Positions 1-4,305 of a stretch of DNA of 4,305 nucleotides are shown here, one piece after another; position 1 is the stretch's first letter, and every line of letters begins with the position of its first letter. This stretch comes from a virus (taxonomy: Duplodnaviria; Heunggongvirae; Uroviricota; Caudoviricetes), in IMG/VR virus record IMGVR_UViG_2531839207_000033; one strand, 5' to 3'. The translations under genes and the position numbers were made by a program. Under the pieces are notes generated by a model, which did not search any database, was not told the origin of the DNA, and saw only the letters and a program-made list of their open reading frames with translations.

Positions 1-100
1 TATTCTGCCGTTATGGAATACTGACATTGATTCACGGCCTGGCTTAACGATAACCAGACTGAGTTCCGGTACCAGAACAGGTCGAAGTAATACCCGCACG

Positions 101-373
101 TTACCTCCAGATGCGTTGCTGATATGTGCGGGACGGACGCGGCGGGCGTTCGGAATAAGGGAGCCTGACGGAAATTATCCAGCGTCGGAAGTCAGGACTG
201 AGGCCTTTCTGAAACTGGTATCCACGTCTGCGGTAATTCTGAATCAGCCACTCGGCCTGTTCTTCAGTGCATTGGTCATGCTGGTACCAGTCATATTTGA
301 ATGCGTGAGAGCGCCGTCCGTGTCTGCTGGCAGGGTCGGCATCAGAATTGTGGTGTTTGGTATTGTGCGCCAT
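101..373 (-). CDS. Small basic hypothetical protein (about 90 aa from the ATG at 373; the listed 117-aa ORF begins at a TTG at 454 that overlaps the terminator T-tract)
   Basis: Minus-strand ORF 101..454 is open throughout; the first in-frame ATG is at 373..371 (MAHNTKHH...). The composition is protein-like (W/Y/D/E/H/Q rich, e.g. KYDWYQHDQCTEEQAEWLIQNYRRRGYQFQ), whereas the overlapping plus-strand frame (open 2..487) is R/V/G/A/S-rich, typical of an antisense frame. No family recognised. Only a weak Shine-Dalgarno (GAGA) precedes the ATG. Confidence 0.4.
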   Translation of the reverse strand: MAHNTKHHNSDADPASRHGRRSHAFKYDWYQHDQCTEEQAEWLIQNYRRRGYQFQKGLSPDFRRWIISVRLPYSERPPRPSRTYQQRIWR

Positions 374-445
374 CGGTTGTCTCTGCTGGCGCAGCAGGTG
401 CCAGTTGTTCAGGCTGGCGTGTGGATTGTAAACCAGAATGCCAGG

Positions 446-471
446 AAAAAACAAAACCCGCGAAGCGGGTT
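446..471 (-). terminator. Rho-independent terminator of the restriction-modification operon
   Basis: Plus strand 455..471 is AACCCGC-GAA-GCGGGTT, a perfect 7-bp stem with a 3-nt loop. Read on the minus strand the hairpin is followed directly by TTGTTTTTT (454..446). It lies 72 nt downstream of the endonuclease stop at 544. There is no T-run after it on the plus strand, so it is orientation-specific for minus-strand transcripts. Confidence 0.6.
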
Positions 472-543
472 AGTAAAAATGTACTGAAGTCAATGACGTG
501 CCATCACAGTTAAAATATGACAGACTCTATTTACGTAGAGATG

Positions 544-1422
544 TCAGACTGCAAGATCCAAGGGAAGATCAGAAATATCCTTTAATCTTTTACCATTAAC
601 CATCACGGAAAGCATGTCAGCTGCATCGCTGAGCCCCAGTATTTCAACTGCTGATATAAGTTCATAAAGCGCAAAATGATACACGCAATCTATATCACCA
701 GTACCAAGAGCAATAGACGCCAGACGACTTGGAGTAGGCTCAGCAGTAACAACCATTACATGAGGGAGATTTCCCTTACGGTTGCGAATAAGATTTAATG
801 CCTCAGAACGAGCATTCTGGGCCCGGTCGCTTCTTATTGTCCATTTGCAGGAAATACTTGCGTGTAATATTGGTTTCCCACCATTCGAACTCCTGAGAGC
901 TGACATGCGGGTAACAGAATCATCCACCAGTAATTCAGGACTGTTGATAACTTGATCACATTCAGGTTCTCTTTCAACAATAATATCTGGTGAAATCGTA
1001 TAATCACTCCCCAGTGCAGCAGCTAGCTGAGGATTACTTTTTGCAGCACTATCCAATGCTATAAGATGGGCATATTGTTCATATTTAGCTATCTCTAATC
1101 TGTTTCTACCAGAAACCTGATGTACATTCCATTTTCCAGGGCGTAAGTGGCTGAGTTTAAAAAAGGTTTTTTCTATAAACTCTGCGCAGATACTCTCAAA
1201 CTGATTACCAGATGTTTGCCCTGCAACACGTTCACCAATCGTTTCAGCCTGCAAGAAGCGAGCAATTTCTCTTGCTATAGCTTTACTGTTTTTGTTACTG
1301 CTATCTGCGTTACTAACAACTCCGGCAGTATTAATTGTGAGCGTATTCAGTAACAATTGGGCATGAAACTCCTTTCTGGCTTCAGCAAAACCAACTATGC
1401 TGTCAACCAAATCTCCATTCAT
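544..1422 (-). CDS. Type II restriction endonuclease, NgoMIV family (PD-(D/E)XK variant, CCGG-core recognising); 292 aa from the ATG at 1422
   Basis: Contains ...HASISCKWTIRSDRAQNARSE..., i.e. the S-x-K...E catalytic arrangement and the R-x-D-R CCGG-recognition motif of the NgoMIV/Cfr10I/Bse634I family, plus an upstream SPD acidic residue. Numbered from the ATG at 1422, the residues E76, D146, K193, R197, D199, R200, E207, and also D40 and R233, all sit exactly 6 positions after the NgoMIV residues as I recall them from the literature (E70, D140, K187, R191, D193, R194, E201, D34, R227). The ATG at 1422 is preceded by AGGA at 9-nt spacing and sits 13 nt after the methyltransferase stop. The ORF is also open for 45 codons further upstream (to 1557), overlapping the methyltransferase 3' end; that extension is judged non-coding. 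Confidence 0.85.
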   Translation of the reverse strand: MNGDLVDSIVGFAEARKEFHAQLLLNTLTINTAGVVSNADSSNKNSKAIAREIARFLQAETIGERVAGQTSGNQFESICAEFIEKTFFKLSHLRPGKWNVHQVSGRNRLEIAKYEQYAHLIALDSAAKSNPQLAAALGSDYTISPDIIVEREPECDQVINSPELLVDDSVTRMSALRSSNGGKPILHASISCKWTIRSDRAQNARSEALNLIRNRKGNLPHVMVVTAEPTPSRLASIALGTGDIDCVYHFALYELISAVEILGLSDAADMLSVMVNGKRLKDISDLPLDLAV

Positions 1423-1435
1423 TTCTGGATTTCCT

Positions 1436-2560
1436 TCAGGCTGCTTGACTATTCTTACTGATGTTATTCTTATACCGTCCCTGCAAAACTCCATACACAT
1501 ATTGTGCGATTTTTGCCGCAAATAGCGGTGGAACAGCATTCCCGATCTGCTTTGCAATCTCAGTTTTTGAACCGGTAAAAATGAAATTATCAGGAAAAGA
1601 CATTAATCTCGCTGCCTCACGATGAGTTATTGGCCGATCCTCTTCCGGATGTAAATATCGCCCTTTCTCCGGTTTGAAAAACTCAGTACGAATCGTTACT
1701 GAAGGTCTGTCCCACCACAGACGTCCAAACAAATCGGTCCCTCCAGATTTCTTTTTTAGCCAGCACGCCGGGGTTATATCAGGTCTTTTTTTCTGTAAAT
1801 CGAAACGGTTACCTCCTGGTGGAACCGCTTTATATCGCTCCAGAGAAACAGGTGTGGGATTACGCCCAAAATGTAAGTTCAGCGGAGGAAGTTCATTACG
1901 AATATCAGCTCCAACAGGAGCAGGTAAGTCACCAATTGCATCACGCGTACAGACCCATTCAGGCAAAGCGACATCCTTATCAGGGGAACGATGCGTTGGT
2001 GCTGGCGGGAACGCCGGAATACTATGCACATCGAAGAGTTCTCGTTTGATACCGATTGCTATCGTTCGTTTTCTTGTCTGAGGTACTCCATAGTCAGCAG
2101 TATTCAACACCATTGGATTAAGCAGAATAAAGCCCATGGATTTCGCTCTAAACGTAATGTCCGCAAACTCATCGCTTATCAGCAATCCGGGGACATTTTC
2201 CATGACGAACATACAAGCCCTTGAACGCTCAATGACATCCATATAAGGCTCCCACAATGCTCTTCGGTGATCACCATAACGATTCTTATTCAATAAACTG
2301 AATCCCTGACACGGGGGGCCACCTATGACCACATCAGCCTCAGGAACAGTATTGCTGGATGCCCACTCCTCAATATTTGCCTGAACTCCATGCAAACCAA
2401 AATTGGCATTGTAGGTATTTATAGCTGCAGCATTATTATCAATAGCAAGGATACTTTCAAAGTAGTCAGACATCTCTCCATGAAGAAAACCATAAGATAA
2501 TCCACCTGCCCCACAAAAGAGGTCTATCACTCTGAATTTATTTAATTCTTTCATCCGCAT
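1436..2560 (-). CDS. DNA (cytosine-5)-methyltransferase, the modification subunit of the Type II system; 374 aa
   Basis: Canonical m5C methyltransferase motifs in the right order: motif I DLFCGAGGLSYGF (AdoMet binding), motif IV GGPPCQGFS (catalytic Pro-Cys), motif VI FVMENVPGLL, motif VIII GVPQTRKRTIAIG, and C-terminal motif X QIGNAVPPLFA, with a long variable target-recognition region between VIII and X. The ATG at 2560 is preceded by GAGG at about 7-nt spacing. Motif I starts near residue 13, so there is no N-terminal regulatory extension. Confidence 0.9.
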   Translation of the reverse strand: MRMKELNKFRVIDLFCGAGGLSYGFLHGEMSDYFESILAIDNNAAAINTYNANFGLHGVQANIEEWASSNTVPEADVVIGGPPCQGFSLLNKNRYGDHRRALWEPYMDVIERSRACMFVMENVPGLLISDEFADITFRAKSMGFILLNPMVLNTADYGVPQTRKRTIAIGIKRELFDVHSIPAFPPAPTHRSPDKDVALPEWVCTRDAIGDLPAPVGADIRNELPPLNLHFGRNPTPVSLERYKAVPPGGNRFDLQKKRPDITPACWLKKKSGGTDLFGRLWWDRPSVTIRTEFFKPEKGRYLHPEEDRPITHREAARLMSFPDNFIFTGSKTEIAKQIGNAVPPLFAAKIAQYVYGVLQGRYKNNISKNSQAA

Positions 2561-2643
2561 CCATATGCCTCAGATTAATGTTGAGCGTCTTACAGGACGC
2601 GTAATGTTAACTGGGGCTTTCTCTATCTGCCTTTTGGTGTTCA

Positions 2644-2668
2644 TGCCTGAGGCAGACAGCCTCAGGCA
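2644..2668. promoter_or_regulatory. Perfect 10-bp inverted repeat (TGCCTGAGGC-agaca-GCCTCAGGCA): candidate operator or 5'-UTR stem-loop of the restriction-modification transcript
   Basis: Read directly from the sequence: arms 2644..2653 and 2659..2668 are exact reverse complements with a 5-nt spacer. It lies 2-4 nt downstream of the predicted transcription start of the promoter at 2678..2706. No flanking T-tract on either strand, so it is not a canonical intrinsic terminator. Confidence 0.5.
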
Positions 2669-2677
2669 CCCGCAGCA

Positions 2678-2706
2678 ATTCTACTTAACTCACGTCACCT
2701 CGCCAA
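2678..2706 (-). promoter_or_regulatory. Putative sigma70 promoter for the methyltransferase-endonuclease operon
   Basis: On the minus strand: -35 TTGGCG (2706..2701), a 17-nt spacer, then -10 TAGAAT (2683..2678). The predicted transcription start is near 2670, about 110 nt upstream of the methyltransferase ATG. It lies in the 178-bp gap between the queH-like stop (2739) and the methyltransferase start (2560). Predicted by eye only. Confidence 0.4.
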
Positions 2707-2738
2707 TATGAAATCAATCAGAAAGGTGATCCATAAAA

Positions 2739-3425
2739 TCACTCCTTCTCTTCTTTTCCGTAGTGGAGTTGGCCAATTTTGATAAGAGGGCGTCCCTGAG
2801 ATTTGCGGTGTAGATTGGTATCGCGCAGAGAATACACACAGCCACAATATTCCTGCTGATAGAATTTTTCGCGCTTGCTGATTTCAATCATACGGGACGA
2901 GCCGCCCTGCTTGCGCCAGTTATAATCCCAGTACACCATACCCGGATAATGCGCAACAGCTCGCCGCCCACACTCGTTAACCTGCTGCATATTTTTCCAG
3001 CGTGAAATGCCCAGTGAACTGCTGATCACACTGAAACCATTTTCAGCAGCGTACAACGCTGTCCGCTCAAAACGCATGTCAAAACACATGGTACAACGGA
3101 TCCCCCTCTCAGGCTCCCATTCCATTCCTTTGGCACGTTCAAACCAGTTGTCGGTGTCGTAATCAGCATCGATAAACGGCACGCCGTGTTGTTCAGCAAA
3201 GCGAATATTTTCATCCTTACGAATTAAATACTCTTTCTGAGGATGAATGTTCGGGTTGTAGAAAAAGATGGTGTAGTCGATTCCCGAGGCCTGAAGCGCC
3301 TCCATCACTTCACCGGAACATGGAGCACAGCAAGAGTGCAGTAGTAGTTTGTTTGCCCCGTTTGGGAGCTCCAATTTAGGCCGTTTGAAATCAGCAATAG
3401 TCATAAATATTTTTATTGGGGTCAT
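2739..3425 (-). CDS. queH: QueH-family (DUF208) epoxyqueuosine reductase-like iron-sulfur protein; 228 aa from the ATG at 3425 (alternative ATG at 3404 gives 221 aa)
   Basis: N-terminal [12 protein letters not shown] motif followed by FYNPNIHP, then [10 protein letters not shown] and EYCGCVYS. I recognise this Cys-rich pattern as the hallmark of the DUF208/QueH family (the non-cobalamin epoxyqueuosine reductase). The ORF is intact. Neither candidate ATG has a strong Shine-Dalgarno sequence. The assignment is from memory of family motifs, not a search. Confidence 0.65.
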
Positions 3426-3578
3426 GAAAATAGCACAGAGTGTAGCATCAGAGCAGGGCTATCGGGAATATATGTCTAAATCTGGTAATATCTGGTTTTG
3501 ACGCAAAGCGGACAACCACGCTGGCTCTACCCTGCGCCATGAAAATGTCAATTCACATCTGAACTAATGCTCTTTAAT

Positions 3579-4004
3579 CTAGTAACGTCTAAAATACCTA
3601 ACATTTCCTTGATAAAATGCCAGTACACGCTGCATAGCTTCGCTCTTCCGGCACTCGCGACAGATTATATTCAGGCGCCTGTCGTAGCGGCGTATTTCGC
3701 CGTCTGGTAACGACCAGATAAGGTCCGGATCAACCACAACCGGTTTCTTCAGTTTTGCCCTCGATAGTTTTTTGCGGGCATTTTGCCAGTCCTTACGAGC
3801 CTGTTCAGACGGGAATAACCCGTAACCAGAGTTGTATACATCGCCACTGACAACCAGCTCTCTGGTGAGAACGCTCATCAGATATCTTGTCGCACCTGTC
3901 TTGGCTTCCAGTTGCCGCAACGTCTCGCGACCGCTCAGACGTACAAGTTCAACAACCTGCCCTTTAATTTTTTCCCGCTCTTCTTGTGTAAATGCTTTTG
4001 CCAT
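3579..4004 (-). CDS. Hypothetical protein with a probable N-terminal winged-helix DNA-binding fold; 141 aa from the ATG at 4004
   Basis: The listed ORF starts at a TTG at 4019, but the in-frame ATG at 4004 (MAKAFTQEEREKI...) is preceded by GGAGG at about 6-nt spacing. The N-terminal segment KIKGQVVELVRLSGRETLRQLEAKTGATRYLMSVLTRELVVSGDV has a helix-turn-helix-plus-wing pattern. The C-terminal part contains CRECRK. No family confidently recognised. Confidence 0.5.
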   Translation of the reverse strand: MAKAFTQEEREKIKGQVVELVRLSGRETLRQLEAKTGATRYLMSVLTRELVVSGDVYNSGYGLFPSEQARKDWQNARKKLSRAKLKKPVVVDPDLIWSLPDGEIRRYDRRLNIICRECRKSEAMQRVLAFYQGNVRYFRRY

Positions 4005-4019
4005 AAGCGCCTCCGGCAA

Positions 4020-4305
4020 TCACTTTTCCGATACAACACGGCGGGAAGAATCAGTAATCTGTCGAACAATATCCCGGTGCTTGTTCAGCTCCCGCAGCGC
4101 GGCGCAGACTCGCTCCCACTTCTGAACCTGACCTTTTGCCCGGCGCAGCTCGCGGTTAGCCACATGCAGCGATGGTAAAATCAGCCCATCCGGATGCTTT
4201 CTGGTGAACAACGGCTGTGACTGCACTGTGACCGCCACACTTTCAGTTTTTATTTCTTCCTGTGTCGTCGTTTCCTGGACTGGTAACGCAACACCTGTTG
4301 GCTGA
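4020..4305 (-). CDS. 3' part of a hypothetical protein gene that starts beyond the right edge of the window (partial)
   Basis: The listed 72-aa ORF begins at a GTG at 4238, but the same frame stays open with no stop to the window edge (upstream in-frame translation QPTGVALPVQETTTQEEIKTES...). The stop TGA at 4022..4020 lies 15 nt before the ATG of the next gene, suggesting an operon. Function unknown. Confidence 0.4.
   Translation of the reverse strand, partial: QPTGVALPVQETTTQEEIKTESVAVTVQSQPLFTRKHPDGLILPSLHVANRELRRAKGQVQKWERVCAALRELNKHRDIVRQITDSSRRVVSEK

Follow-up and report, generated by a model that had tools for sequence, protein, structure and literature searches.

A queuosine-pathway reductase gene, queH, as long-resident accessory cargo of lambdoid Escherichia coli prophages

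Why should a tailed phage carry a gene of the queuosine (Q) pathway directly beside a restriction-modification (R-M) operon? The question is raised by a 4,305-nt stretch of viral DNA (Caudoviricetes; IMG/VR record IMGVR_UViG_2531839207_000033; the whole stretch is hereafter the window), in which a gene of the QueH family precedes genes for a DNA methyltransferase and a restriction endonuclease. An earlier reading of the letters of this stretch, hereafter the original prediction, had offered two possibilities for the gene: ordinary tRNA-modification housekeeping, or a paralog recruited to a nucleic-acid modification or defence role. Our comparisons point elsewhere. We consider it probable that queH is a self-promoted accessory gene that would give lysogens cobalamin-independent Q maturation, and that its adjacency to the R-M genes is incidental. 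Coordinates below are positions of the whole window, and metal-ligand residues are numbered in the 228-aa open reading frame (ORF).

The gene itself was delimited as follows.

2739..3404, minus strand: queH coding sequence, most likely 221 aa; the maximal ORF extends to ATG 3425 and encodes 228 aa

Its assignment to QueH (DUF208), originally proposed from an HSCCAPC cysteine cluster and downstream Cys pairs, held up. The query matched the Pfam QueH profile PF02677 over its full length (E = 1.1e-65; 221.5 bits against a cut-off of 23.5; query residues 27-201 on profile positions 1-174/175) and matched PDB entry 7lc5, the solved QueH of Thermotoga maritima, with E = 8e-22; an NCBIfam search with the same protein matched no model. 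The HSCCAPC motif was found together with a CxxC and a CGC pair, and in the 7lc5 alignment and a seven-sequence alignment residues C32, C33, C111, C114, C194 and C196 were invariant and corresponded to T. maritima C9, C10, C87, C90, C169 and C171, that is, to all six metal-ligand Cys. In the T. maritima enzyme, six Cys and Asp13 reportedly bind a [4Fe-4S] cluster and an adjacent iron (work of Li et al. 2021, from which we take the structures 7LC5 and 7LC7 to come), and Zallot et al. 2017 are said to have first described QueH (DUF208, PF02677) as the epoxyqueuosine (oQ) reductase. The full-length Pfam match and the six aligned Cys make the query alike to T. maritima QueH; it is set apart as a prophage gene carried by a temperate phage.

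At the position of T. maritima Asp13 the query has Cys36, and a D13N variant is present in the PDB. The CCAP motif occurred in 114 of 150 family representatives (37-80% identity), where the next residue was Cys in 110 and Asp in three, and Cys also followed CCAP in 120 of 120 close homologs of the query, so that HSCCAPC is the family norm. Positions 2739-3404 of the window encode a bona fide QueH, whose identity and conservation are established and whose oQ reductase activity is predicted. The family was already known, and RefSeq already names the gene QueH.

The originally proposed extent of 2739-3425 was borne out as an ORF, uninterrupted for 228 codons on the minus strand in the ORF list of the window, but probably not as a coding sequence. 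ATG 3425 is not conserved, being ATT in a divergent prophage allele (L011), whereas ATG 3404 is invariant among prophage alleles, agrees with the N-termini of homologs and is the start used by RefSeq, which holds the identical protein (WP_000150294.1) from the equivalent of 3404; the coding sequence is therefore most likely 2739..3404. A related matter of start codons concerns the PHROGs database, in which the query belongs to phrog_3217, a family of "unknown function". Its 188-position profile begins to align only at residue 41, where MEALQ supplies an internal Met, which suggests that many phage annotations use an internal start and miss the CCAPC motif. Such internal-start calling may explain why phrog_3217 remains a family of "unknown function". 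In a library clustered at 50% identity, four QueH-domain proteins (P0125, P0129, P0135 and P0138) were long fusions of 719-1398 aa with the QueH domain at the C-terminus.

The window corresponds to the early-right part of an E. coli lambdoid prophage. It matched E. coli chromosomes over its whole length at 98.5-98.7% among the matches listed, and in NZ_CP077567 it lies inside an annotated lambdoid prophage of ~34 kb integrated beside rspB/ynfA. Read along the minus strand, that prophage comprises repressor and Cro, a YdaT-family gene, replication genes (a helix-turn-helix protein and an ATP-binding protein), DUF1627, DUF977, queH, methyltransferase, endonuclease, a small hypothetical gene, DUF968, RusA, antiterminator Q, and the lysis, head and tail genes. 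We regard queH as a phage gene because Escherichia phage HannyBb, an isolated temperate phage, carries a 95% identical copy in the same slot, between a Ren-like gene and a hok-family gene, and because relatives of the query turn up on 189 viral contigs of IMG/VR, with 100% identity in the best 80 of the 189. A repeat IMG/VR scan, made with an alignment including T. maritima QueH, led back to the same prophage loci of E. coli and added no diversity.

To place the gene in its host population we used a census of 5426 complete E. coli genomes. queH was present in 995 of them (~18%) and near full length in 985 of the 995, its carriers including sequence type 131 (ST131), avian pathogenic (APEC) and enterohaemorrhagic (EHEC) E. 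coli lineages. With one genome taken per GTDB species, only Escherichia albertii shared the prophage context. The ORF was intact in all contexts sampled, and among six prophage alleles the pairwise ratio of nonsynonymous to synonymous divergence (dN/dS) was 0.02-0.09 (~0.05) where dS exceeded 0.03, with dS reaching 0.45, a sign that the gene has long resided in phages under strong purifying selection. queH is a long-resident accessory gene of a lambdoid prophage family of E. coli and E. albertii.

The same census bears on the partner genes. The R-M cassette occurred in 60 genomes and the whole arrangement of the window in 57, while queH was followed by hokD in 741 genomes, by Kiwa in 155 (KwaA and KwaB, PADLOC E = 1e-101 and 3e-159), by Hok/Gef with a Doc-type toxin in nine, and in a few by another gene, for example DUF1971. 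The original prediction had named a conserved core-genome position in relatives lacking the cassette, with no recurrent linkage to defence genes, as telling against its idea of a link. This largely applies, since hundreds of genomes without the cassette encode a 100% identical protein at the same prophage position, and QueH does not co-occur with the cassette (995 against 60 genomes) as consistently as a component of the R-M system would. The 80 IMG/VR loci encoding a 100% identical QueH divided into 55 with hokD, 20 with the R-M genes and five too short to tell. The protein is thus 100% identical whether R-M genes are present or absent, which excludes a QueH specialised for the cassette. Housekeeping in the ordinary sense fared no better, the gene being prophage-borne and redundant with host queG, which was found in 5426 of 5426 genomes and so also in each of the 995 that carry queH.

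This redundancy departs from the usual, though not strict, pattern in which QueH replaces a missing QueG: unlike a typical queH, the prophage gene coexists with queG in every host genome. Staphylococcus aureus also has both QueG and QueH, and their different expression profiles have been attributed to cofactor availability (PMC13443448). QueG is cobalamin-dependent (PMC4646009), and according to the passage of PMC6850298 that cites Frey et al. 1988, tRNAs of E. coli and Salmonella hold oQ, not Q, in glucose-salts medium without B12. QueH is predicted to catalyse the same reaction as QueG (E. coli yjeS; cobalamin and [4Fe-4S]) on the same four tRNAs (PMC4646009; PMC5372724), but the two differ in fold and cofactors, QueH having been described as a non-orthologous, iron-dependent replacement without a need for B12 (PMC5372724; PMC13443448). 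The prophage enzyme would accordingly carry out an iron-sulfur, cobalamin-independent reduction of oQ to Q at position 34 of tRNA-Asn, -Asp, -His and -Tyr, and may free Q maturation from its need for B12 in the lysogen, and perhaps in lytic growth too. A B12-bypass role appears the likeliest because all E. coli have QueG, QueG needs B12, and oQ accumulates without it.

Upstream of the gene lies a candidate promoter of its own, distinct from the phage promoter pR.

3439..3447, minus strand: candidate extended -10 element of queH, TGCTACACT, 34 nt upstream of ATG 3404; putative function

The most conserved stretch upstream of prophage queH, in all versions including the divergent L011 allele, is TCTGATGCTACACT, which contains TGCTACACT. 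Upstream of chromosomal queH in Scandinavium, Kluyvera and Enterobacter we found TGCTACAAT, TGCTACACT, CGCTACAAT or TGCTACCCT within flanks that are otherwise unrelated; in three loci, counted by hand, the distance to the ATG was 34-35 nt, and the consensus of the -10-like element across prophage and measured chromosomal queH is TGCTACA(A/C)T. The same genera provide the closest relatives of the protein among loci without lambdoid markers (Scandinavium 92%, Kluyvera 91% and Enterobacter 88-90% identity), followed by Erwinia, Providencia, Serratia and Photorhabdus, likewise without such markers, at ~80-86%; overall, the query is 75-92% identical to QueH of many proteobacteria. The contexts examined belonged to the core chromosome: in Erwinia, for example, the gene order was purL-queH-glrK, and in Providencia queH lay near tmcA and purC. 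Capture of queH from a chromosome of the Enterobacteriaceae, along with its extended -10 promoter, would fit these data, and the gene may be expressed from that promoter independently of pR.

The region between queH and the methyltransferase accounts for the neighbourhood, and its features are listed here together with those of the cassette.

2678..2706, minus strand: hok-type sigma-70 promoter-like site (TTGGCG, 17 nt, TAGAAT), 33 nt past the queH stop, from promoter scans
2567..2671, minus strand: hok/sok 5' leader remnant (Rfam RF01794, 61 bits against a gathering score of 59, E = 2.8e-12)
473..2566, minus strand: type II R-M cassette, 2094 bp in place of the 287-bp hokD body, delimited by blastn break points against the hokD-type prophage L002
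1436..2554, minus strand (start 2554/2560): DNA cytosine-5 (m5C) methyltransferase (Pfam PF00145, E = 4.6e-54; TIGR00675; PADLOC MTase_II)
544..1422, minus strand: NgoMIV-family type II endonuclease, 292 aa from ATG 1422 (Pfam PF09015, E = 9.9e-127; PADLOC REase_II, E = 8e-126; RefSeq)
455..471, minus strand: intrinsic terminator, AACCCGCTTCGCGGGTT followed by TTGTTTTTT (a T-run), 3' of the endonuclease gene, from the terminator scan
L007 3249-4888 and L009 2653-4292 (E. coli strains 405 and 7/2): Kiwa (KwaA and KwaB) in the same slot, from PADLOC

queH, the methyltransferase and the endonuclease all lie on the minus strand, as had been noted, and promoter and terminator scans detected no intrinsic terminator between queH and the methyltransferase. 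The 172-nt spacer (2567-2738) proved to be a hok promoter plus the first 104 nt of a hok mRNA leader. The RF01794 match begins at 2671, 7 nt downstream of the promoter-like site; the leader at 2567..2671 folds at -41.6 kcal/mol (z = -2.8) and is >90% identical to hokD and mokW leaders. Homology to the hokD and mokW loci and to HannyBb stops at 2567, which is 7-13 nt before the methyltransferase start, and the Hok toxin ORF is not retained, the 287-bp hok body of L002 being replaced by the 2094-bp cassette. The palindrome that the original prediction had placed 70 nt past the queH stop, with no terminator in between, does lie 71 nt past it (~2646-2668); it corresponds to the first stem-loop of the leader (~2643-2671). 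We rejected it as a terminator or operator of the R-M operon, given that it is the first hok leader stem-loop and is kept where R-M genes are absent.

The spacer shares its promoter and leader with hok/sok type I toxin-antitoxin loci (hokD/relF of the Qin prophage); it differs from them in that the mok/hok ORFs and the expected sok promoter region have been replaced by the cassette, leaving a promoter-leader remnant. The promoter-like site is kept in the hokD, HannyBb, Kiwa and Hok/Gef versions, and the Kiwa version retains the same promoter and first hairpin with a break ~30 nt into the leader, compared with +104 for R-M. Against L002, blastn alignments were collinear at 2567-4305 (96% identity) and 11-472 (86%), the difference between the two flanks suggesting a recombination junction near the right end of the cassette. 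The terminator at 455..471 belongs to the flank common to the hokD version (window 11-472), not to the cassette. Because promoter, leader and terminator all lie in shared flanks, R-M and Kiwa are cargo behind one hok promoter and ahead of a shared terminator: in the window the NgoMIV-type cassette took the place of the hok toxin ORF from leader position +104, and in other prophages Kiwa did likewise at ~+30. The slot 3' of queH behaves as a hotspot of defence cargo, with queH as its conserved upstream flank. Recurrent linkage of queH to defence genes, which had been suggested as worth surveying, is real as an adjacency to defence and addiction modules and is explained by a variable slot on the hok promoter. 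Read-through from queH into the R-M genes, also proposed, is possible with no terminator in the way; it is unnecessary for R-M expression, since a hok promoter precedes the methyltransferase, which can probably be transcribed from there with or without read-through.

The cassette is mostly lower in G+C (~0.39-0.49) than its flanks (0.47-0.54), and NAU codons make up 0.79 of its Asn, Asp, His and Tyr codons, compared with ~0.55 in the remaining prophage and host genes. Its AT-richness and this NAU share are consistent with a recent foreign origin.

How, then, do other explanations of queH compare? That QueH works together with the defence cassette beside it, or that it is a paralog taken over for nucleic-acid modification (7-deazaguanine in DNA), for defence or for anti-defence, appears exceedingly improbable. 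Co-orientation with the R-M genes, the missing terminator and a slot repeatedly filled by R-M, Kiwa, hok and Doc are what one would expect of it, but the cassette accompanies queH in only ~6% of queH-positive genomes, QueH is 100% identical in hokD and R-M contexts, and the hok promoter upstream gives the cassette a promoter of its own. QueH matched none of the families in PADLOC-DB (0), in a search in which the methyltransferase, the endonuclease, KwaA and KwaB all matched strongly. The query also retains all of its ligand Cys and 75-92% identity to other proteobacterial QueH, including the core chromosomal copies of Erwinia and Providencia. oQ is not known to occur outside tRNA, which counts against a DNA-directed role as well. 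Neither the ORFs of the window nor the 58 annotated features of the 44-kb locus included tgt/dpdA, folE or queC/D/E; the original prediction had reported no gene for a tRNA-guanine transglycosylase (TGT) or DpdA in the window and had called a defence role speculative, and both the observation and the caution were justified. The resemblance to Dpd islands and phage 7-deazaguanine DNA-modification clusters (Hutinet et al. 2019, PMC6884629) extends to 7-deazaguanine/queuosine enzymes carried on mobile elements near restriction-related genes. Those systems are, however, defined by a DpdA/TGT-like transglycosylase together with preQ0-synthesis genes (folE, queD, queE, queC), none of which is present in the query prophage, and QueH differs in acting on a tRNA-specific late intermediate. 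Neither a QueH/R-M functional unit nor a defence or DNA-modification role for queH is supported.

Two further explanations leave tRNA as the substrate or dispense with function altogether. The same conversion of oQ to Q in tRNA might serve lytic growth, with early expression from pR tuning the decoding of NAU/NAC codons, and not lysogenic conversion. queH does sit co-oriented inside the early-right operon with no terminator upstream, and according to a preprint on Shewanella, phage infection induces queG and thereby increases Q at the cost of oQ (bioRxiv 10.64898/2026.03.05.709803). We nevertheless judge this unlikely: the NAU share of Asn, Asp, His and Tyr codons was 0.556 in the prophage against 0.553 in a host gene sample, with 0.534 in late genes, and the retained native-type extended -10 element argues for expression independent of pR. 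tRNA turnover is limited within a lambdoid latent period, which we also counted against a lytic role. The idea of codon tuning as such found no support, only the AT-rich R-M cassette being high in NAU. More doubtful still, and in our estimate very unlikely, is that queH is a hitch-hiking passenger whose function has been lost in the prophages of E. coli. In its favour, queG is present in the host anyway, and the PHROGs family of "unknown function", with a profile from residue 41, would consist of members lacking the CCAPC motif; yet a dN/dS of ~0.05 over dS values up to 0.45, an ORF intact in all contexts and near full length in 985 of 995 genomes, and retention of the gene in a viable isolated phage (HannyBb) are not what a decaying passenger would leave.

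Several observations also weigh against our preferred reading of queH as a self-promoted, B12-bypassing gene of lysogens. The consensus promoter scan did not call a queH promoter, so that the candidate element is put forward for its cross-species conservation only, and no clear Shine-Dalgarno sequence was found before ATG 3404. Since no terminator separates DUF977 from queH, the latter could be a plain early-operon gene, silent in lysogens. The residue equivalent to Asp13 of the sole solved QueH is Cys in the query, although this is the majority state of the family, and the prophage shows no NAU bias relative to the host sample. The activity and expression of prophage queH, and a benefit of Q over oQ in E. 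coli, are points that we infer.

With these points considered, the bypass of B12 by a self-promoted prophage gene remains the reading we favour, and a broader formulation, that a lambdoid prophage performs lysogenic conversion of the tRNA epitranscriptome through self-promoted QueH, completing the last step of Q synthesis without cobalamin, is offered more tentatively. If it is true, lysogens would retain fully matured Q-tRNA under B12 scarcity, or after loss of the BtuB receptor in cells escaping phages or colicins, and translation of NAU/NAC codons, stress tolerance or virulence could be affected. In its setting queH resembles the morons and auxiliary metabolic genes of the lambdoid early-right region, being an accessory gene, non-essential for phage development, in a mosaic region, with an apparent promoter of its own and a presence in only part of the related prophages; it differs from morons in that no terminator of its own follows the gene. 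The searchable literature contained no description of such a tRNA-modification enzyme as a lambdoid cargo gene and no mention of a lambdoid prophage lineage, in ~18% of complete E. coli genomes, carrying queH redundantly with queG. There is nothing special about the link between QueH and R-M as first posed: a variable cargo slot brought the two together by accident. What makes the locus of interest is that a probably B12-bypassing tRNA-modification enzyme forms conserved cargo under purifying selection in common E. coli prophages, and so offers a simple, testable case of a phage altering host tRNA modification. The hotspot itself, in which toxin-antitoxin, Kiwa and R-M modules are swapped behind a retained hok promoter, should be useful for finding new defence cargo in lambdoid prophages.

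The remaining features of the window lie on either side of queH and the cassette.

3579..4019, minus strand: DUF977 / Ren-like exclusion protein gene (Pfam PF06163, E = 1.7e-27; PHROG 142; RefSeq start equivalent to 4004)
4020..4305, minus strand: 3' part of the DUF1627 gene, which extends past the window end (Pfam PF07789; RefSeq, full gene in L001)
101..373, minus strand: small lambdoid hypothetical gene preceding DUF968/RusA/Q (PHROG 1212; RefSeq), in the flank common to the hokD version

The DUF977 gene sits 5' of queH in every prophage context examined, and is its constant neighbour although immunity, replication and nin modules vary among the prophages. In the L010 and HannyBb alleles, a methyltransferase gene fragment of 186-207 nt separates DUF977 from queH. 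Elsewhere, a contig labelled Pseudomonas cerasi (CDRVBI010000002.1; L167 5436-7663; protein P0008) carries an 85% identical queH divergent from a dcm-vsr pair, that is, a cytosine methylase and a Vsr endonuclease; this second adjacency of queH to a C5-methylase is apparently coincidental.

Within the cassette, the program-made endonuclease ORF (544-1557) gives 337 aa from a TTG and shares 122 nt with the end of the methyltransferase gene, with the Pfam domain starting from residue 64; the RefSeq start at ATG 1422 leaves instead a 13-nt gap after the methyltransferase stop. An Rfam RyhB-like match at 448-505 was rejected, since it scored 24 bits against a threshold of 55 and corresponds to the terminator hairpin only. 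Near the right end of the cassette, RefSeq has a pair of small hypothetical genes that overlap on opposite strands, at 320-487 (plus) and 101-373 (minus), equivalent to 20320-20487 and 20101-20373 in L001.

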